A stretch of DNA of 32,000 nucleotides from Candidatus Saccharimonadota bacterium. Lineage in GTDB: Bacteria > Bacteroidota > Bacteroidia > Flavobacteriales > Blattabacteriaceae. The stretch is taken from contig NZ_OZ034981.1 in NCBI RefSeq assembly GCF_964030875.1, forward strand, positions 30,001 through 62,000. The letters are read 5' to 3'. Positions 8,673-19,052 of this stretch are shown piece by piece. The translations under genes and the position numbers were made by a program. Below the pieces are notes generated by a model. The model saw nothing but the letters and a program-made list of their open reading frames with translations, searched no databases and was not told where the DNA came from. The first letter of the stretch is position 1; each line of letters starts with the position of its first letter.

Positions 8673-8713
8673 CCCCTAATGGAGCAGGAACTGCATAAAC
8701 CTGCGGCTAGAAT

Positions 8714-8904
8714 TTAAAACCCGTATTCGGATATCATGAATAAGTTACTCATCTTAAAGGTGAGACGTAAACTGCGCAAGCTTTAGCTGCTACACTAGCG
8801 TATAGCACGAACACTTTCTCTGTGGCAAGTGCACTTCCATCAAATACATACCCAGTAATTCCTTGTTTAGCGATACCTTGTTTAGCGATAAGTGTATGCG
8901 GTAT
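8714..8904 (-). pseudogene. Possible eroded transketolase C-terminal remnant
   Basis: A minus-strand open segment at 8749-8904 reads IPHTLIAKQGIAKQGITGYVFDGSALATEKVFVLYASVAAKACAVYVSPLR*. A downstream fragment in another frame reads SNLFMISEYGF*. In order, these resemble the transketolase C-terminal motifs IA+GGYVL.D, IFIATGSEV..A..AA and RVVSMP, then LLFEEFGFT. There is no start codon, the frames are broken, and much sequence is missing. Confidence 0.3.
8861..8890. repeat. 15-bp perfect tandem duplication (ccttgtttagcgata x2)
   Basis: Read directly at 8861-8875 and 8876-8890. On the minus strand it duplicates five codons (IAKQG IAKQG) in frame within the putative relic. Confidence 0.9.
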
Positions 8905-8971
8905 CTATAAAATATAAGCTTAGCATTCCAAAAGGAACACGAGATTTTTTACATTTTTGGTTGATCTCCTT

Positions 8972-9059
8972 CGTTATGATTTAACAGTGCCTTTTGCACG
9001 TTATGATTTAACAGTGCCTTTTGCACGTTATGATTTAACAGTGCCTTTTGCACGTTATG
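8972..9059. repeat. 27-bp tandem array, 3 perfect copies plus a 7-nt partial copy (unit cgttatgatttaacagtgccttttgca)
   Basis: Copies at 8972-8998, 8999-9025 and 9026-9052 are identical. Positions 9053-9059 repeat the first 7 nt. Confidence 0.95.
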
Positions 9060-9423
9060 TTTTTTCCTTTTAAAATCTATAAACAAGTATGGAGGTTGAA
9101 TAGTCCTCAAAAAGCTAGAATTTTATAAATGTGATGCCGATGTTATCAGCTCTAGATCAATTTAACTTTACGATGCCTTAACTCAGATTACCAGTTCAAT
9201 CACAGAGAATATAATTAAACATCTTTAAGTGTTTTTATAAATTCTTTTATGGTTATAAACGAGGAAAGAAGGCTTTAAATTTGAACCTTAGATTAGTTCG
9301 TGGTATTACACAGGAATGATATGCTAGGTCGGAGGGGTGCGGAACTTCCTTTGGGTTGAAAAACGTATACATTACGGATACATGCTAGACGTAATATTTA
9401 ATACATTCCATCATAATTATATA

Positions 9424-9467
9424 TCAACTGTCAACTGTCAACTGTAAACTGTCAACTGTCAACTGTC
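9424..9467. repeat. Heptanucleotide microsatellite (tcaactg) x6.3, one variant copy taaactg
   Basis: Read directly: tcaactg tcaactg tcaactg taaactg tcaactg tcaactg tc. Confidence 0.9.
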
Positions 9468-9598
9468 TAAACAACTTAAGTATGTTAATAAACGTGGATT
9501 TTACCATAATAGAAAAAGGAATTACAATCAATTTATCACTATGTAGAAAAAATAGCTAAATACTATCCGACCTTGAGAGGTCAGTGAACGTCAATATT

Positions 9599-10943: not shown

Positions 10944-10981
10944 CACCATAATGAGTTATTTATCAAAACGTTAAGAATAAT

Positions 10982-11391
10982 CTGCACCCCATAATTCTGT
11001 TCGCAGATCTAGAAATAAGGGATGATTTCCAATTTATTAATGCTGTATATTTGCCTAAGAACCAATAATCCGATATCGTCGTTTATAATTATTCCGTAGA
11101 TTTTTAAAATCACAGTATGACGTAAAGTGATGTCGTCTATGTTCCCAGTAACTACTCGTTTGTAGAAATACTACTTTATAGAATTCCTTTTTGTAATTTG
11201 ACAGAGCCTTCGTAAGGAACTTGACGAACATACTAAGCGTGAGAGTCTACTTCACCTACGCACATGCCCTTATGATTGGTATAAAAATTCCGATTTTTAA
11301 CGAGTGCTGTATGCATTATGTAGGAGAAACTATAGCAAAAAAATTATCACTATATTTTAAGAGTATAGACAACCTTTTTTCTCCAAAGACT
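10982..11391 (+). pseudogene. Possible eroded NAD-dependent DNA ligase (LigA) remnant
   Basis: Frame of 11311-11376 reads MHYVGETIAKKLSLYFKSIDNL. This matches the LigA helix-hairpin-helix segment GIRxVGExxAxxLAxxFxSIDxL. A weaker upstream fragment in another frame (10982-11068), LHPIILFADLEIRDDFQF, resembles IPLxL...LEIRGE of the adenylation domain. Order and strand are consistent, but stops and frame changes intervene. Confidence 0.3.
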
Positions 11392-11426
11392 TAAAGAGGA
11401 CGGGTTGAATGTAAAAAAAATGAACG

Positions 11427-13853
11427 ATGAAATATATTGAAAATAAAATCATAAACATTTTAGAATCGGATTTTGAACATGATACAGAATTTATTCCTTT
11501 GATAAATCAGGATGAGGAAGAACCTCTACTTAAAGAGGGTGGAGTTACAGAACAAATTACTATTTTACCAGTACGAAACGTTGTTTTGTTCCCTGGAGTA
11601 GTTATTCCTATTACAGCTGGACGCACTCGTTCTATTCAATTACTTCAAGATACTTACCGTGCGGACAAAACAGTAGGAGTACTTACCCAGAAAGATATGA
11701 ATATAGACCAACCTACTGAAAAAGACTTGTATCCTATTGGGACAGTATCTAAGATTTTAAAACTATTAAAAATGCCCGATGGGAATACTACAGTAATTCT
11801 TCAGGGAAAACACCGATTTATCATTAAGCAATTCATTCAAGAAAAACCCTATTTCAAAGCTGAAATTTTCCCATTACAAGAACTACATCCTCTTCTTGAG
11901 GATAAAGAATATCTGACTTTAGTAGAATCCATAAAAGAGTTAGCTATAAAAATTATACAAGAAAATACCAACATACCATCTGAAGCAAATTTTGCTATTA
12001 GAAACATAGAAAACCCTTCATTTCTTATTAATTTTGTGGCAGCTAATATGGGATTCCCAATCAAAGATAAACAAAATCTTCTAAATGAAAACGATATAAA
12101 AAAAAGAGCGGTAAAAACCTATCGTTTTTTGAGCATAGAACATCAGCAAATACGTATTAAAAATGAGATTCAATCTCGAGTTCGTAGCGATATGGACCAA
12201 CAACAACGGGAATATTTTCTACAACAGCAAATCAAGGCTATCCAAGAGGAATTGGGTGATCTTTCTGATGAAAAAGAAATTGAAGAGATGCGTACTAAGG
12301 CTGCTAGAAAAAAATGGCCTAAGGAAGTATCGGAACAATTTGAGAAGGAACTTTACAAGTTCCAAAGGAGTAATTCTCAAATGCCTGAATATACTGTACA
12401 ACGCAATTATTTAGATCTAATGCTTGATTTACCTTGGAAAAAATATTCTAAAGACCATTTTGATTTATATAGAGTGCAGAAAATTCTTGACAGAGAACAT
12501 GCTGGACTTGAGAAAGTCAAAGAGAGAATTATTGAACATTTAGCTGTATTAAAGCTACGTGCTGATATGCGTTCTCCTATTCTATGTCTCTATGGTCCTC
12601 CAGGGGTTGGAAAAACTTCTCTAGGAAAATCTATTGCTTACGCACTAAAAAGAAAATACGTCCGGATTTCATTAGGAGGTATGTCCGATGAAGCTGAAAT
12701 TCGCGGACATCGTAGAACTTATATTGGAGCAATGCCAGGACGAATATTACAATCTATAAAAAAATCAAAAACTTCTAATCCTGTTTTTGTTTTAGATGAA
12801 ATTGATAAAATGTGTTCCGGAGCACATGGAGATCCTTCATCAGCTATGCTTGAAGTCTTAGATCCGGAACAGAATACTTCTTTTTACGATAATTTTTTAG
12901 AATTAGGTTATGATCTTTCTAAGGTGTTTTTTATAGCTACTGCCAACTCACTTTCTAGCATAGACTCTCCGCTTTTAGATCGTATGGAAATCATTGAAAT
13001 AAATGGATATACTATTGAAGAAAAAATAGAAATTTCTTACAAACATATACTGCCAAAACAATTAAAAGCTCATGGGTTAAAAAGAACTGATTTAATACTG
13101 GGAAAAAAACAATTTGAAAAAGTTATCGAAAGTTATACAAAAGAATCCGGGGTCAGAGAGTTAGAAAAACAGTTTGCTAAGTTGGCTAGACATGCAGCTA
13201 AAAATATTGCGATAGGAAATACATTTTCAAAACGATTGAGTGTAGAGGAGATAGAAAAAATATTAGGAGTACCTAAAGATATAGAACGTTATGAAGGAGA
13301 GAGTATACCAATTGGTGTTGTTACTGGATTAGCTTGGACTAGTACAGGTGGTGATATTCTTTATATTGAATCTATTCTTTCACAAGGAAAAGGTCTATTA
13401 AGTATTACTGGAAACCTGGGAGAAATTATGAAAGAGTCTGCTACTATTGCGTTACAATACATAAAAGCTCACTATCAGGAGTTTAATATAGATCCCAATC
13501 TGTTTTCAAAAACAAATATACATATACACGTTCCTGAAGGTGCTGTTCCGAAAGATGGACCATCGGCTGGTATTACTATGCTTGCATCCTTGATATCAAG
13601 TTATACAGGTAGAAAAGTCAAACCTTATTTAGCAATGACAGGTGAAATTACTTTACGAGGAAGAGTATTGCCTGTGGGAGGCATTAAAGAAAAAATATTG
13701 GCAGCGAAACGTTCATGCATTAAGGAGATCATTCTTTCTCATAAAAATAGAAAAGATATTGCTGATATTAAGAAAGAATATCTGGAGGGCTTGACGTTTT
13801 TTTACGTGAAAGAGATGAAGGAAGTAATCGATATTGCTTTAATGAAAAATTAG
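11427..13853 (+). CDS. lon: ATP-dependent Lon protease
   Basis: 808-aa ORF with a Lon N-domain, the AAA+ Walker [10 protein letters not shown], and the protease site [11 protein letters not shown] with the catalytic Ser. Confidence 0.95.
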
Positions 13854-15094: not shown

Positions 15095-15182
15095 GGAGAG
15101 GTGGCAGAGTGGTCTATTGCGGTGGTCTTGAAAACCATTGAGAGTAACATCTCCGCGGGTTCGAATCCCTCCTTCTCCGCCA
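15095..15182 (+). tRNA. tRNA-Ser (TGA), CCA encoded
   Basis: Acceptor ggagagg/cttctcc, 3-bp D stem, anticodon stem gtggt/accat with loop ctTGAaa (TGA at 15129-15131), long variable arm, T loop ttcgaat, terminal gcca. Confidence 0.9.
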
Positions 15183-15189
15183 TATTTTA

Positions 15190-15264
15190 GGACATTTAGC
15201 TCAGTTGGTTAAGAGCGATACCTTGACAGGGTATAGGTCATCGGTTCAATTCCGATAATGTCCA
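15190..15264 (+). tRNA. tRNA-Val (GAC)
   Basis: Fully paired cloverleaf: acceptor ggacatt/aatgtcc, D gctc/gagc, anticodon stem atacc/ggtat with loop ttGACag (15225-15227), T arm atcgg-ttcaatt-ccgat. Confidence 0.9.
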
Positions 15265-15300
15265 CGGGTGAAATTTTTTACTGAACGGATTTAAAATGAG

Positions 15301-15375
15301 TGGGCTGTACTGGATTCGAACCAGCGACCTTCTACTCGTAAGGTAGACGCTCTAACCCAGCTAAGCTAACCGCCC
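15301..15375 (-). tRNA. tRNA-Val (TAC)
   Basis: The reverse complement gggcggttagcttagctgggttagagcgtctaccttacgagtagaaggtcgctggttcgaatccagtacagccca folds with anticodon stem tctac/gtaga and loop ctTACga. There is one G-A mismatch in the acceptor stem. Confidence 0.85.
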
Positions 15376-15396
15376 TTTTACAAATATAACATATTT

Positions 15397-15546
15397 TTCT
15401 ATTCAGTTAATCCAGCGTGCATCGTTCTATTCAGTTAATCCAGCGTGCATCGTTCTATTCAGTTAATCCAGCGTGCATCGTTCTATTCAGTTAATCCAGC
15501 GTGCATCGTTCTATTCAGTTAATCCAGCGTGCATCGTTTTATTCTA
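15397..15546. repeat. 28-bp tandem array A, 5 perfect copies plus a partial copy (unit ttctattcagttaatccagcgtgcatcg)
   Basis: Identical copies start at 15397, 15425, 15453, 15481 and 15509. A degenerate partial copy follows from 15537. Confidence 0.95.
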
Positions 15547-15553
15547 GCTCCTA

Positions 15554-15574
15554 AAGTCCCAAGTCCCAATCCCC
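15554..15574. repeat. 7-bp triplet aagtccc aagtccc aatcccc in the core between the two 28-bp arrays
   Basis: Read directly at 15554-15560, 15561-15567 and 15568-15574 (the third copy has 2 changes). Confidence 0.6.
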
Positions 15575-15663
15575 GCATAACTGTTGCACGATGCGGATAA
15601 CATAGTGCTACCAATCCACAAATGGCCAAGGAGCATCGTAAATGGTGCCATCGACTGAAAACT

Positions 15664-15775
15664 TTTGGAACAGTAACTGAAGCGATGCTCCTTTGGAACA
15701 GTAACTGAAGCGATGCTCCTTTGGAACAGTAACTGAAGCGATGCTCCTTTGGAACAGTAACTGAAGCGATGCTCC
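15664..15775. repeat. 28-bp tandem array B, 4 perfect copies (unit tttggaacagtaactgaagcgatgctcc), related to the reverse complement of array A
   Basis: Identical copies start at 15664, 15692, 15720 and 15748. The rotated unit cgatgctcctttggaacagtaactgaag and rc(A) cgatgcacgctggattaactgaatagaa share cgatgc, tgga and taactgaa in the same order. Confidence 0.95.
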
Positions 15776-15908
15776 TAAAAAATTTTGCAGTGGTTAGTAA
15801 AGTAGCACATCAAATATTATCAAACAGGGGAGAATTTAGTACAATGTAATGCATATTACGCACATAGGTTTCGTGTCTCTCTATCTTTAATTTTTACGGC
15901 ATGCTTAT

Positions 15909-15925
15909 ACCGGATTATGGCCGGT
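15909..15925 (-). terminator. GC-rich hairpin just 3' of the helicase stop codon; weak terminator candidate
   Basis: accgg-attatgg-ccggt forms a 5-bp stem 9 nt downstream of the stop at 15934. No U-tract follows, so this is only a candidate. Confidence 0.25.
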
Positions 15926-15933
15926 GAAAAATT

Positions 15934-17862
15934 TTATTTATGTTGGACATATCTTGTTAAACGTTCTTGTCCTATTTCTTCTATAAAACGACTAGGGACT
16001 CCATAAACGAGTTTTCCCCAACGATAACGAGTTGTCGCGTAACTTAAAATCACCTGTTTCTGAGCTCGGGTTAGAGCTACATAAAACAGACGTCTTTCTT
16101 CTTCAAGATTAGCGTAATTTTTGACGCTAAGCATAGATGGAAAAAGATTTTCTTCCATACCCACTATAAAAATGATAGGAAATTCTAATCCTTTTGAGAG
16201 ATGAACAGTCATAAGAGAAACCCTATCATCATCAGTTTTTTCTATATCGCTAGCTAAGGCAATATTTTTTAAAAAAACAGAGAGTGAGGTATAGGCCTGT
16301 ATACTGTTTATAAATTCTTGTACATTTTCATAGCGGGAAAGACCTTCAGTAGGATTGTCTTTACATAAATCACTAAGTAAATCAGAAGTTTTAACCACTT
16401 CTTTAGCAGTAGCATACGCTCCTTCAGCTAATTTTATAGAACAATGTTTGATAATTACAAAAAACTCTTTAAGTTTGGCGGTTATTCTTTTATGAAGACA
16501 CATCTCTTTAGCATAAAAAGAGATATTATTTAATACTTCATACAGTGTTTTTCCATGTTTATCTGCAGTTACAAGAAGTTTATTAATAGTAGATGGTCCT
16601 ATTCCACGATGCGGATAGTTGATAATCCTAAGAAGAGCTTCCTCATCGTTTGGATTTACCAAAATCCGGAGATAAGCAAGTAAATCTTTAATTTCTTTTC
16701 TTTGATAAAAAGAAATACCTCCATAGATTTTATAAGGAATCTTCTTTTTGTTAAGAGACTCTTCCAGGGCTCTTGACTGAGCATTGGTACGGTAAAGAAT
16801 AGCGAAATCCTTGTTCTGCAATTTATATTGCAATTTTATTTCAAAAAGGGTATTTGCTACAAAATCACCTTCCTCTTTATCAGAAATAGCACCATAAAAT
16901 TTAATTTTTTCTCCTTTTTCGTTATTAGTCCAATTTTTTTTATACATCTGTTCCTTGTTACAAGCAATGACATTATTAGCTGCCTGTACAATATGTACAG
17001 TAGATCTATAATTCTGTTCTAATCGAAAAATTTTAGCATAGGGATAATCCAACTGGAAATTTTGTATATTTTTAATATTTGCTCCACGAAAAGCATAAAT
17101 GCTTTGTGCATCATCCCCTACTACAAATAGGTTTTTATAACGAGAGGCTAAAGCTCTGATGATAAGATATTGAGAGTAATTTGTGTCTTGATACTCATCT
17201 ACAAGAATATATTTGAACCGTTCTTGGTACTTGGATAACACCTCTGGAAAACGGGTGAAGAGTTCATTGGTACGTAATAGAATATCATCAAAATCCATAG
17301 CACCGTATTTAAAACAACGATCTATATAGGCTTGGTAAATATATCCTAAACGGGTAGCGTTTTGTGAATGACGTGTAAAATTATCAAAGTAATTCTGTAC
17401 GGTAATCAAATTGTTTTTTAGACGAGAAATTCTAGAAAGAACTGTTTTAGGTTTAGAAAAACATTTTTCTAAATGTAGCTCTTCAATGATTTTTTTAATG
17501 ACGTGTTCAGCGTCTTTCTGATCATAAATAGTATAATCTGAAGGATATCCTAACCTATAAATTTCTGTATGGAGTATTCTAGCAAATACTGAATGAAAAG
17601 TCCCAATACACAGATTTTTAATGTTGATATTTCCTGTTAAATGAGCAATCCGTTGCTTCATTTCTCTAGCAGATTTATTGGTAAAAGTAAGTGCTAGTAT
17701 ATGCAACGGATCAATACCTTGATTCATCAAATGAGCAATTCTATAAGTAAGTACACGAGTTTTTCCTGAACCCGCTCCAGCAATCACTATGATAGGTCCT
17801 GTTACAGTAGTAACAATTTTTAATTGAATAGAATTCAGATCGGCTATATAATTAAATTTCAT
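15934..17862 (-). CDS. uvrD: ATP-dependent DNA helicase, UvrD/PcrA/Rep family (SF1)
   Basis: 642-aa ORF with the SF1 motifs AGAGSGKTRVLT, DEYQDTN, GDDAQSIYAFRGA, QNYRS, TVHLSKGLEFP and YVALTRAQ. It is shorter than typical family members. The symbol is a family-level guess. Confidence 0.85.
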   Translation of the reverse strand: MKFNYIADLNSIQLKIVTTVTGPIIVIAGAGSGKTRVLTYRIAHLMNQGIDPLHILALTFTNKSAREMKQRIAHLTGNINIKNLCIGTFHSVFARILHTEIYRLGYPSDYTIYDQKDAEHVIKKIIEELHLEKCFSKPKTVLSRISRLKNNLITVQNYFDNFTRHSQNATRLGYIYQAYIDRCFKYGAMDFDDILLRTNELFTRFPEVLSKYQERFKYILVDEYQDTNYSQYLIIRALASRYKNLFVVGDDAQSIYAFRGANIKNIQNFQLDYPYAKIFRLEQNYRSTVHIVQAANNVIACNKEQMYKKNWTNNEKGEKIKFYGAISDKEEGDFVANTLFEIKLQYKLQNKDFAILYRTNAQSRALEESLNKKKIPYKIYGGISFYQRKEIKDLLAYLRILVNPNDEEALLRIINYPHRGIGPSTINKLLVTADKHGKTLYEVLNNISFYAKEMCLHKRITAKLKEFFVIIKHCSIKLAEGAYATAKEVVKTSDLLSDLCKDNPTEGLSRYENVQEFINSIQAYTSLSVFLKNIALASDIEKTDDDRVSLMTVHLSKGLEFPIIFIVGMEENLFPSMLSVKNYANLEEERRLFYVALTRAQKQVILSYATTRYRWGKLVYGVPSRFIEEIGQERLTRYVQHK

Positions 17863-17941: not shown

Positions 17942-17976
17942 TATTCCATCGATGTGGTATTCCATCGATGTGGTAT
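17942..17976. repeat. 16-bp tandem duplication (tattccatcgatgtgg x2.2)
   Basis: Copies at 17942-17957 and 17958-17973 are identical, and tat is repeated at 17974-17976. Each unit holds the palindrome catcgatg. Confidence 0.85.
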
Positions 17977-18005: not shown

Positions 18006-19052
18006 TCAGTTTTCTTTTCGAGGTCTCAGTCGTCGGATAGTATCCCCTACTTCCCAAAGTTCACTTTTTCTCAATTCCTCAAGTTCTTCTTGAAGTTGTT
18101 CTTTATAATTATTTTGTAGATTGGATGTTATAGTGCGCTCAGCCTCATTTCCTGAGGCTACTTCGTGGTAAAGTTCTTGAAAAACAGGCATAACAGCATC
18201 TTTAAATCTTTTCCACCAGTCTAAAGCTCCTCTTTGAGCAGTAGTAGAACAATTAGAATACATCCATTCCATACCATTTTCTCCAATAAGTGGCATCAAA
18301 CTTTCGGTAAATTCTTCAACCGTTTCGTTAAAGGACTCTGAAGGAGAATGACCATGGTCACGTAATATTTGATATTGAGCAGAAAAAATCCCCTGTATCG
18401 CTCCCATCAAAGTACCCCTTTCTCCGACCAGATCTGAAAACACCTCATTTCTAAAATTAGTTTCAAACATATAACCAGAACCTATAGCGATTCCTATCGC
18501 AAAAGTCTTTTCCTTAGCACGACCGCTATAGTCTTGATAAATAGCATAGCTAGAATTAATTCCTGTACCTTTTAGAAATAACCTTCTGACACTAGTCCCC
18601 GATCCTTTTGGGGCAACTAGAAAAACATCAATGTCTTTAGGAGGATAAATACCTGTTTTATTTTGAAAAGTAATACCAAATCCATGAGAAAAATATAGAG
18701 ATTTACCAGTAGTAAGATACTTATTAAGTAAAGGCCATACCGAAATTTGTCCTGCGTCAGACAACAAATTCATAATAATTGTACCACGACTAACGGCTTC
18801 TTCTATCTCAAATAGATTCTTTCCTTCTATCCAACCGTCTTTCAAAGCTTTTTCCCAGGAAACAGAATTTTTCCTCTGTCCTATAATTACAGTCAAACCA
18901 TTATCCCTAAGATTTAAAGCCTGTCCAGGACCTTGTATACCATATCCTATTACAGATAGGATTTCATCTTTCAATATTTTTTTTGCCCTTTCTAAAGAAA
19001 ATTCATTTCTCATCAGAACATTTTCTTCCATGGGGCCAAATTTAATTTTCAC
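18006..19052 (-). CDS. ilvC: Ketol-acid reductoisomerase (class I)
   Basis: 348-aa ORF with the NADP site VIGYGIQGPGQALNLRDNG and KARI C-terminal knot-domain motifs. Confidence 0.9.
   Translation of the reverse strand: MKIKFGPMEENVLMRNEFSLERAKKILKDEILSVIGYGIQGPGQALNLRDNGLTVIIGQRKNSVSWEKALKDGWIEGKNLFEIEEAVSRGTIIMNLLSDAGQISVWPLLNKYLTTGKSLYFSHGFGITFQNKTGIYPPKDIDVFLVAPKGSGTSVRRLFLKGTGINSSYAIYQDYSGRAKEKTFAIGIAIGSGYMFETNFRNEVFSDLVGERGTLMGAIQGIFSAQYQILRDHGHSPSESFNETVEEFTESLMPLIGENGMEWMYSNCSTTAQRGALDWWKRFKDAVMPVFQELYHEVASGNEAERTITSNLQNNYKEQLQEELEELRKSELWEVGDTIRRLRPRKEN

Follow-up and report, generated by a model that had tools for sequence, protein, structure and literature searches.

Two perfect tandem arrays, A and B, share a 28-bp period and flank a short unique core next to a tRNA cluster in the ~289-kb genome of 'Candidatus Walczuchella'. 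They raise the question of whether such a locus is a functional site of the chromosome or a by-product of its replication. The window, that is the whole stretch of 32,000 nucleotides analysed here, belongs to this symbiont, a flavobacterium that lives in the scale insect Icerya purchasi (ICPU; cf. Table 1 of PMC12188211). An earlier note, made from the letters alone, offered three candidates: protein-binding arrays of the iteron kind, a structured non-coding RNA, and a minisatellite formed by slippage where mismatch repair is weak. The comparative data back the third. The arrays are best read as ordinary slippage minisatellites, and not as an origin, a protein-binding site or an RNA gene. We put at roughly 0.85 the probability that A and B are young, neutral minisatellites made in situ by RecA-independent replication slippage in unconstrained spacer.

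Arrays, core and genomic setting

TRF, repeat finding and pattern searches agree on the array coordinates and confirm the two perfect 28-bp arrays that had been described (see the table). The copies of A and B are arranged head-to-tail, with a start-to-start distance equal to the unit length. No unique spacers separate the directly abutting units, which excludes a CRISPR array. With up to three mismatches allowed, neither unit has a match outside its array in the 32-kb window, and shuffled sequences gave an expectation of 0 by chance.

Table. Features of the array locus and of the neighbouring 27-bp array (positions in the window)
Feature	Coordinates	Strand	Basis and remarks
27-bp unit x3.4 array	8972..9063		TRF; 4.4 copies in CP170564.1, 5.4 in ICSE, one in CRMU, CRGE and LLAX
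tRNA-Ser, tRNA-Val(gac), tRNA-Val(tac) cluster	15095-15375		ARAGORN
tRNA-Val(tac) gene	15300..15375	-	ARAGORN and Rfam RF00005, 63.8 bits; on the - strand it directly follows the spacer with the repeats
TATATTTG, putative tRNA-Val promoter element	15381..15388	-	Fits the Bacteroidetes -7 motif TAnnTTTG; located upstream of the tRNA, 5 nt from its 5' end
Array A, 28-bp unit TTCTATTCAGTTAATCCAGCGTGCATCG	15397..15544		5 perfect copies (15397-15536) and an 8-nt partial copy (15537-15544, 1 mismatch)
Unique core	15545..15663		Alignment; ordinary spacer sequence common to CRMU, CRGE and ICSE, and partly to the Drosicha strains (CACCATTTACGATGCTCCTTGG)
7-bp mini-array AAGTCCC x~3	15554..15573		TRF; small duplication found in ICPU only
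Hairpin ccgcat-12 nt-atgcgg	15573..15596		Invariant in four Icerya/Crypticerya-clade strains
11-nt AAGGAGCATCG	15628..15638		Exact complement of the B-copy junction
Array B, 28-bp unit TTTGGAACAGTAACTGAAGCGATGCTCC	15664..15776		4 perfect copies (15664-15775) and 1 nt
Remaining spacer	15777..15933	-	Alignment and ORF list
UvrD/PcrA-family helicase gene	15934..17862	-	Pfam; 642 aa; without the C-terminal PF21196 domain

Both arrays lie within a 558-bp spacer, bordered by tRNA-Val(tac) on one side and by the UvrD/PcrA helicase gene on the other. ARAGORN and Pfam bear out these neighbours, which had been named from the sequence as a tRNA cluster and a UvrD-family helicase. The helicase, the spacer and tRNA-Val(tac) have a common minus-strand orientation, and the other neighbours of the spacer are lon, lysA and ilv genes. 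The array spacer contains no ORF longer than 36 aa. Its G+C content is 0.40 compared with ~0.33 for the locus, in line with the higher G+C noted previously, and on this account the spacer may derive from ex-coding DNA.

The helicase is C-terminally truncated, as judged from the lengths and domains of its homologues, which reach ~770 aa in free-living Flavobacteriales. Positions ~15856-15899 are the one-time 3' coding end of the gene and are still in-frame coding sequence in LLAX and the Drosicha strains. A clade-specific insertion of ~45 bp at ~15900-15945 crosses position 15933 into the helicase ORF and supplies the present stop codon (15934-15936). No remnant of the lost C-terminus was found in the array spacer: when the terminal 260 aa of seven full-length (~770 aa) homologues were compared by tblastn with the spacers of four strains, homology ended at the present stop and nothing consistent followed. 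A mobile-element origin was likewise rejected, as blastn against 72,556 plasmids and 50,697 phages returned no match.

The 7-bp mini-array, the hairpin and the 11-nt segment complementary to B were all found in the core as reported. The mini-array unit is present in one copy in sister strains (GGGACTT or GGTACTT). One arm of the hairpin and its loop (AACAGTTATGCGG) are themselves amplified fivefold in ICSE. The complementarity of AAGGAGCATCG predates the array: CRMU and CRGE, with B in single copy, have it as a 10-bp inverted repeat, which two uncompensated changes break in ICSE.

Single-copy ancestry in sister genomes

We compared the window with six other Walczuchella genomes, including CRMU, CRGE, ICSE, LLAX and Drosicha strains. 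The closest relative of the window strain is CRMU, with 99.6% nucleotide identity in the helicase gene. A scan of genome contigs for further relatives gave LLAX only, and two metagenome pattern scans gave none.

Unit A is single-copy in all six of the other genomes. Unit B is identical and single-copy in CRMU and CRGE, single-copy with four substitutions in ICSE, and present as a diverged single copy in the Drosicha strains. Absence of the arrays from sister strains had been named beforehand as an outcome that would count against a functional site, and the CRMU spacer is indeed array-free, with the same sequence in an independent Logan assembly. CRGE and ICSE also carry A and B once each and have other segments amplified instead: in CRGE 34 bp x4 from the spacer and 25 bp x4 from a segment that includes the tRNA 3' end, and in ICSE 12 bp x8 and 13 bp x5. 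All five full A copies of the window carry a T>C change specific to ICPU (CACGCTGG; CACGTTGG elsewhere). Therefore, either the amplification of A is later than this substitution, or the copies were homogenised.

In sister genomes each unit stands once at the corresponding site, so A and B arose independently and in place, each from its own unique sequence. This supersedes the proposal that they are diverged members of one array family in inverted orientation. The words common to B and the reverse complement of A are present as the earlier note stated, but the similarity exceeds that of shuffled controls only marginally: global and local alignments with rotations, tested against 300-2000 shuffles, gave P values of 0.017-0.15 depending on the scoring scheme.

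The same pattern extends beyond the spacer. In a unit-by-strain matrix of the seven genomes, amplification is confined to a single lineage for 13 of the 16 array units, and for ten of these 13 a single-copy counterpart was detected in at least one sister strain. The remaining units are a 27-mer amplified in both Icerya strains (3 or 4 copies in ICPU, 5 in ICSE), a 12-mer that is multi-copy in ICSE (8) and CRGE (4), and a short CRMU 9-mer with several matches in most strains. The arrays of all strains are located in spacers or in short ORF calls without Pfam domains. Across the syntenic ~22 kb (~8-14% of each genome) there are six arrays in ICPU, six in ICSE, two in CRMU and two in CRGE, and two to three small ones in the Drosicha strains; LLAX has five distinct loci, with periods of 6, 14, 21 and 24/25 bp, two of which reach at least three copies. 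The periods span 6-34 bp and seem to cluster at 27-28 bp, a length seen in six of ~16 amplification events whose sequences are unrelated. Such clustering among unrelated sequences is outside the prediction of simple slippage.

Proposed slippage and its rivals

In the ancestor, each 28-bp segment would have been present once in the spacer. The ancestral state of A is GAATAAAA-20 nt-GAATAGAA, an 8-nt direct repeat (7/8 match) at a spacing of exactly 28 bp. Mispairing of these pre-existing repeats may have caused the first duplication, and the resulting two perfect copies could have undergone more slippage to reach five. Array B would have expanded to four copies with a boundary homology of 1 nt. 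The identity of the copies would then reflect recent expansion and not constraint.

The layout of n copies plus k nucleotides is shared with other arrays. An imperfect k-nt direct repeat already flanks the single-copy orthologue, with k being 8 nt for A, 11 nt for the 27-mer, 5 nt for the CRGE 25-mer, 9 nt for the CRGE 34-mer and 10 nt for an ICSE 28-mer. We regard this layout, together with the pre-existing flanking repeat, as the signature of slipped-strand duplication. Flanking microhomology is almost absent from array B (1 nt), and was not found in the 12-, 13- and 14-bp arrays either; therefore, the initiating duplication is not always due to mispairing of direct repeats.

The neighbouring 27-bp array is direct evidence of rapid copy-number change. 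The window and CP170564.1, both from I. purchasi, have no mismatches over 21.9 kb, and their sole indel is one unit of this array, while the copy numbers of A and B are equal in the two assemblies; the CP1705xx genomes are Illumina/SPAdes assemblies, in which absolute copy numbers could be under-estimated.

Bacterial VNTR or minisatellite loci, which are used for MLVA typing, arise by slipped-strand mispairing between short direct repeats, and their RecA-independent expansion and deletion has been studied in E. coli. The Walczuchella arrays resemble them in their perfect head-to-tail copies followed by a partial copy, in the direct repeats that flank the unduplicated allele, and in copy number that differs between otherwise identical isolates, as in the 27-bp array, A and B being the same in both assemblies. 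Unlike VNTR hosts, Walczuchella has no known recombination or mismatch-repair system, which leaves replication-based routes only.

The rival that survives best is a regulatory effect, in which the five A copies, as extra polymerase or factor sites or as a spacer, would alter the transcription of tRNA-Val(tac), and array B, located just downstream of the helicase gene and on the strand shared by helicase, spacer and tRNA, may affect helicase read-through. A reading of the sequence and a sigma-70-style scan suggest that TATATTTG acts as the promoter element of the tRNA. It is unique sequence outside array A and is kept as TATCTTTG or TATATTTG in all seven genomes, so that a -7 box of the form TAnnTTTG is conserved beside the tRNA. 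The scan paired TATATT with the -35-like TTAACT of the last A copy, at 16-nt spacing and with TG present. Moreover, the A0 block AGCTAGAATAAAACGATGCACGYTGGATTAACT is 100% conserved in all seven genomes and single-copy in the others, amid spacer sequence that is unalignable between clades. This implies an overlap of unit A with a constrained element, which is probably the region upstream of tRNA-Val.

Nevertheless, sister strains manage with one copy of A, and the spacing from TTAACT to the box is 16, 20 or 24 nt according to clade, which makes the -35 role doubtful. Unrelated segments, including the tRNA 3' end, are amplified in other strains, which argues for a sequence-blind process. Since the tRNA-proximal A copy restores the ancestral junction to the putative promoter exactly, tRNA-Val expression need not change, and no change is the default expectation. 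We consider a regulatory role improbable, and the arrays as such are probably neutral.

It is still less probable that the assembler created the arrays or truncated their copy numbers. The suspicion is reasonable for published genomes that are short-read SPAdes assemblies, in which many arrays total 105-160 bp, near the read and k-mer length, and for which uneven coverage at 'repetitive sequences' was noted (PMC12188211). However, ICPU was covered 1,523x (PMC12188211), and the window and CP170564.1 agree in A and B even though they are different sequence versions, the window having one 27-bp unit fewer elsewhere. The independent CRMU Logan contig stops at position 16602, 4 nt into a CRMU 28-bp array (16599-16711), as expected for a real repeat that exceeds the assembly k-mer. 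Furthermore, the units stem from genuine single-copy orthologues with flanking microhomology, which assemblers do not invent.

Iteron-like binding arrays at a replication origin, terminus or partition site appeared attractive, as arrays of equal period stand on either side of a G+C-richer core, at a convergent gene junction (plus-strand genes to 15265, minus-strand genes from 15300) that lies at ~47% of the chromosome in the LLAX record. Iterons are conserved among related replicons, usually have spacers of fixed phase, and are found beside a rep or dnaA gene and an AT-rich unwinding element. A and B share with them short (~20-30 bp) tandem direct repeats near an intergenic region, but they abut perfectly, are strain-specific, are unrelated to each other save for the marginal similarity, and adjoin no initiator gene, be it rep or dnaA, and no par gene. 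An essential cis-site would be expected to be conserved, yet CRMU has no arrays in the spacer, and those of CRGE and ICSE are unrelated. The convergent junction is not special either, given ~10 flips of gene orientation in the window. GC skew over 41.6 kb tracks gene orientation (coefficient 0.10), and in a replichore regression on the 29 genes of this segment a breakpoint at the locus is not the best one and removes 4.7% (all sites) or 0.1% (third positions) of the residual variance, so no replichore-type skew break is present at the locus within 41.6 kb. Non-conservation largely refutes the iteron reading, and what probability it retains is very small.

Equally faint is the chance that the stretch between helicase and tRNA is transcribed into a structured non-coding RNA or a long A/B hairpin. 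This reading was suggested by the 11-nt perfect complement of the core to each B copy, by the words TTCAGTTA and TAACTGAA common to B and A in inverted orientation, and by the ccgcat/atgcgg hairpin in a spacer co-oriented with its flanking genes. In the Rfam search called for by the earlier note, run at the gathering threshold and at E<=10 on amplified and single-copy spacers, only the tRNA was recovered, apart from two chance-level matches to the C/D-box snoRNA sR20 inside array A on the minus strand (15.1-15.2 bits compared with a gathering score of 44; E 2.3-2.4). Minimum-free-energy z-scores of -0.52 (CRMU, single-copy) and -1.19 (ICPU) are within the range of shuffles. In ICSE, each of the two proposed long-range stems has substitutions in one arm (AGGAG>CGTAG and TTCAGTTA>TTAAGTTA) and none in its partner, in a comparison of few informative sequences, and the region is not alignable in LLAX.

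Probable minisatellites in a reduced replication system

The proposed slippage minisatellites may be tied to the gene losses that Walczuchella has suffered in replication and repair. LLAX has no mutL, dnaB, primase or recombination genes (PMC3971599). All seven genomes lack dnaB and dnaG, and three of the seven keep mutS (PMC12188211), while Pol III subunits including dnaQ are retained (PMC12188211, PMC3971599).

A precedent is 'Candidatus Portiera aleyrodidarum' of Bemisia tabaci, in which short tandem repeats have proliferated in intergenic regions (Sloan & Moran 2013, PMC3673631). Both are obligate insect endosymbionts with tiny genomes and repeats concentrated in enlarged intergenic regions (PMC3673631); in both, the repeats are lineage-specific relative to sister lineages and indels comprise whole repeat units. 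In contrast to the sharp 7-bp spike of the Portiera repeats, the periods of Walczuchella spread over 6-34 bp around the apparent 27-28-bp cluster. The gene losses differ as well: the B. tabaci Portiera, whose genome is heavily rearranged, has lost several Pol III subunits, dnaQ among them, whereas Walczuchella keeps dnaQ, lacks dnaB, dnaG and mutL, and has completely syntenic genomes (PMC12188211). The Walczuchella arrays are previously unreported; neither genome paper mentions tandem repeats, the word 'tandem' being absent from PMC12188211 and 'repeat' from PMC3971599.

Reading the arrays as mutational debris removes the tempting interpretation of the locus as an origin, iteron site or RNA gene. 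It also explains part of the spacer-length differences between strictly syntenic genomes, and such arrays can confound short-read assemblies and pseudogene calls. As they evolve faster than SNPs, they may serve for strain typing in a scale insect that is invasive worldwide.

We speculate, as an unlikely extension, that Walczuchella has undergone a genome-wide burst of minisatellites, clearest in the Icerya/Crypticerya clade and outpacing point substitutions. Its preferred slip of ~27-28 bp would reflect replication without the symbiont's own DnaB, DnaG, Pol I-type flap removal and mismatch repair; priming by the host, or flaps or primers of fixed size, are examples of what might set that length. 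If so, the arrays would be a mutational signature of organelle-like replication and VNTR markers for invasive Icerya purchasi, and a 27-28-bp preference that held genome-wide would offer a handle on replication in a bacterium lacking its own helicase and primase.

Two 28-bp arrays beside the helicase gene

The window derives from Walczuchella ICPU, the obligate symbiont carried by the cottony cushion scale (Icerya purchasi), with a 288,943-bp genome (Choi et al. 2025, PMC12188211, Table 1); the helicase protein of the window is also encoded on that chromosome, CP170564.1. The spacer between tRNA-Val(tac) and a helicase gene carries two 28-bp tandem arrays, A and B, separated by a core (see table). 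Repeat finding and mismatch-tolerant pattern searches identified five perfect copies in A and four in B, and no extra unit of either with up to three mismatches elsewhere in the 32-kb window. The core holds a 7-bp mini-array, a ccgcat/atgcgg hairpin, and an 11-nt segment, AAGGAGCATCG, complementary to the junction of the B copies. TRF, repeat and pattern searches recovered the arrays and all of these core features, as described in the earlier note. No ORF crossing the spacer exceeds 36 aa.

Coordinates of repeats and neighboring features (window positions unless a locus is named)
Feature	Position	Unit and copies	Remarks
Array A	15397-15544	28 bp x5.3	99% matches, TRF
Array B	15664-15776	28 bp x4.0	100% matches, TRF
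Mini-array	15554-15573	7 bp	core
Array-bearing spacer	15376-15933		558 bp; G+C 0.40 vs ~0.33 locally
tRNA-Val(tac)	15300-15375 (-)		one flank of spacer
UvrD/PcrA-family helicase gene	15934-17862 (-)		other flank of spacer
Putative -7 box TATATTTG	15381-15388		conserved, Bacteroidetes-type, beside tRNA
Insertion CAACATAAATAAAATTTTTCACCGGCCATAATCCGGTATAAGCATG	~15900-15945 (-)		~45 bp
Segment next to insertion	15856-15899		~45 nt; still coding in LLAX and Drosicha clades
27-mer AAATCATAACGTGCAAAAGGCACTGTT	8972-9063; CP170564.1 locus (L001) 18800-18918; ICSE locus (L010) 18886-19031	27 bp
926-bp spacer	8673-9598	15 bp x2; 27 bp x3.4; 7 bp x6.3	three arrays
lon-rplS spacer	10945-11426		no arrays in ICPU
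ICSE lon-rplS arrays	L010 16421-17068	27 bp x6; ACGTTT x19
CRMU lon-rplS array	L011 16599-16711	28 bp x4
LLAX lon-rplS array	L002 16226-16309	14 bp x6	directly beside orthologue of ICSE unit
CRGE array AATCCAGTCCCGCCCACTCATTTTA	L013 (CP170565.1) 12422-12526	25 bp x4.2	spans tRNA-Val(tac) 3' end and trailer
ilvC-helicase spacer repeat	17942-17976	16 bp x2.2, perfect	143-bp spacer, G+C 0.41

The ICPU helicase has its best homologues in 'Candidatus Walczuchella monophlebidarum' (94-95% identity), followed by those of endosymbiotic and free-living Flavobacteriales at up to 71%. The protein has 642 residues, compared to ~770 in free-living relatives, and is missing the C-terminal PF21196 domain. 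The spacer was considered as a decayed helicase C-terminus and rejected, as tblastn detected no trace past the present stop. That stop codon is supplied by the CAACATAAATAAAATTTTTCACCGGCCATAATCCGGTATAAGCATG insertion, present in the four Icerya/Crypticerya-clade genomes and absent from LLAX and the Drosicha strains. The neighboring tRNA-Val(tac) reads ...CCAGTACAGCCCA in ICPU and ...CCAGTACTGCCCA in LLAX and the Drosicha strains, which by our reading would leave a G-A mismatch in the acceptor stem in place of the G5-U68 wobble pair; a third version, CCCGCCCA, is found in CRGE.

Array copy number among Walczuchella genomes

We compared the syntenic locus across the six remaining published Walczuchella genomes and several Logan assemblies of independent origin. 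A and B are single-copy in CRMU, CRGE, and ICSE, the helicase genes of which are 99.6, 99.5, and 98.6% identical in nucleotide sequence to that of ICPU. In LLAX and two Drosicha strains (~96.5-97%), A is single-copy and B is diverged or unalignable. The spacers of these three strains and of CRMU contain no other arrays, and an independent Logan contig of CRMU is identical to the published spacer. CRGE carries a 34-bp unit x4.3 and a 25-bp unit x4.2, and ICSE carries TAACCACTGCAA x8 and AACAGTTATGCGG x5, the latter formed by one arm and the loop of the ICPU core hairpin. By unit-by-strain count, 13 of 16 array units are amplified in just one lineage, and for ten of the 13 a single copy was found in one or more sister strains. 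Both Icerya strains, ICPU and ICSE, have several copies of the 27-mer, a 12-mer occurs eight times in ICSE and four times in CRGE, and a short CRMU 9-mer has several matches in most strains.

Since A and B are single-copy in sister genomes, they do not descend from one inverted family of diverged arrays, the reading put forward in the earlier note; the inverted words that they share are present, but 1.7-15% of shuffled sequences score as high, the share varying with the scoring scheme. A and B each arose in place from their own unique sequence, and they were amplified once ICPU had split from the nearest relatives with a sequenced genome. A T>C change specific to ICPU is found in each of the five full A copies, and thus the amplification is later than the substitution or the copies were homogenised.

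Copy number of the 27-mer is 3.4 in the window, 4.4 in CP170564.1 (the published ICPU genome), 5.4 in ICSE, and one in CRMU, CRGE, and LLAX. Over 21.9 kb, the window and CP170564.1 differ by zero mismatches and one 27-bp gap, equal to one 27-mer unit, which indicates that the window comes from another I. purchasi symbiont assembly or version. RefSeq includes a protein set under the name 'Candidatus Walczuchella endosymbiont of Icerya purchasi', and BioProject PRJEB75090 is cited in PMC13459715. Copy number of the 27-mer thus shifted while zero point substitutions accumulated. Arrays A and B do not differ between the two versions, which supports their reality, if not their own instability.

Probable replication slippage and alternative explanations

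The earlier note listed a slippage minisatellite among its candidates, and the strain-specific arrays with single-copy counterparts in sisters favor it: we estimate a probability of about 85% that these two strain-specific arrays were generated by slippage, as minisatellites. Single-copy orthologues of each array were located between conserved flanks. Several arrays have the form of n copies plus k nt, and even in the allele without the duplication the unit is bracketed by a k-nt imperfect direct repeat: GAATAAAA ... GAATAGAA (7/8, spaced by exactly 28 bp) for A, AAAACATAACG ... AAATCATAACG (10/11, 27 bp) for the 27-mer, AATCC ... AATCC (25 bp) for the CRGE 25-mer, 9 nt (34 bp) for the CRGE 34-mer, and 10 nt (28 bp) for the ICSE 28-mer. 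Such bracketing repeats are the classical footprint of slipped-strand mispairing, which would have made the first duplication; perfect repeats, once formed, would expand readily. Boundary homology is just 0-1 nt in array B and a few others, so that mispairing of this kind does not account for every initiating event. LLAX is without mutL, dnaB, primase, and recombination genes (PMC3971599); dnaB and dnaG are missing from all seven Walczuchella genomes, and mutS is kept in only three (PMC12188211). Lacking RecA and a functional MutSL, the symbiont would have replication slippage as its only obvious route.

A regulatory side-effect of array A amplification is improbable, though it fares best among the alternatives. 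The A progenitor block AGCTAGAATAAAACGATGCACGYTGGATTAACT, just upstream of the putative -7 box, is invariant in all seven genomes, while its surroundings are unalignable between clades. However, the tRNA-proximal A copy reproduces the ancestral junction, and the default expectation is therefore no change. That the arrays or their copy numbers are assembly artefacts is less probable still, given that two sequence versions agree, that coverage is 1,523x, and that the progenitors exist as genuine single-copy orthologues; the published genomes are short-read, and for this reason copy numbers could be lower bounds.

Two other candidates of the earlier note are very improbable. Iterons of a replication origin, terminus or partition site are contradicted by the non-conservation of the arrays among strains, by the lack of an adjoining initiator gene, and by a per-gene GC-skew regression on orientation and breakpoint over 41.6 kb, in which orientation was dominant (0.10) and a breakpoint at the locus explained 4.7% of the residual variance for all sites and 0.1% for third positions, with better breakpoints located elsewhere. 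A structured RNA is equally doubtful, as Rfam returned only the tRNA and, in array A, two matches to the sR20 snoRNA at chance level (15 bits, E ~2.3), MFE z-scores are -0.52 and -1.19 for the single-copy and amplified spacers, and both long-range stems carry uncompensated substitutions in ICSE. A mobile-element origin was rejected with zero plasmid or phage matches.

Further arrays and a possible preferred slip length

All arrays lie in long spacers or short Pfam-less ORF calls. The counterpart of the 926-bp spacer in LLAX and the Drosicha strains still contains short ORFs matching PF03129 (HGTP_anticodon), which marks the spacer as the decayed remnant of an aminoacyl-tRNA synthetase gene. 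A second hotspot is the lon-rplS spacer, with different arrays in ICSE, CRMU, and LLAX; the Logan CRMU contig stops 4 nt inside the CRMU 28-bp array. A 9-bp unit related to the ilvC-helicase spacer repeat occurs x4 at the same site in CRMU (ATACCACAT). The position of the CRGE 25-bp array indicates that amplification also strikes the end of a functional gene; the ancestral AATCC ... AATCC repeat of this array is seen in ICPU and LLAX.

Neither Walczuchella genome paper mentions tandem repeats (PMC12188211, PMC3971599). The nearest parallel described so far comes from Portiera of Bemisia tabaci, where short tandem repeats have proliferated in the enlarged intergenic regions (PMC3673631). Both are obligate endosymbionts with lineage-specific intergenic arrays and indels the size of one unit, and in both, going by the literature, genes for replication and repair are eroded. 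Portiera differs in its 7-bp period spike, dnaQ loss, and extensive rearrangement, whereas Walczuchella genomes are fully syntenic, keep Pol III subunits, and have periods of 6 to 34 bp.

Among arrays of at least three copies, periods of 27-28 bp occur in six of ~16 amplification events with unrelated unit sequences (ICPU A and B, the ICPU/ICSE 27-mer, ICSE 28 and 27, and CRMU 28), a post hoc count covering ~8-14% of each genome. This clustering possibly reflects a preferred slip length. If the preference is genome-wide, it would tie slip length to the unusual replication apparatus of the symbiont.
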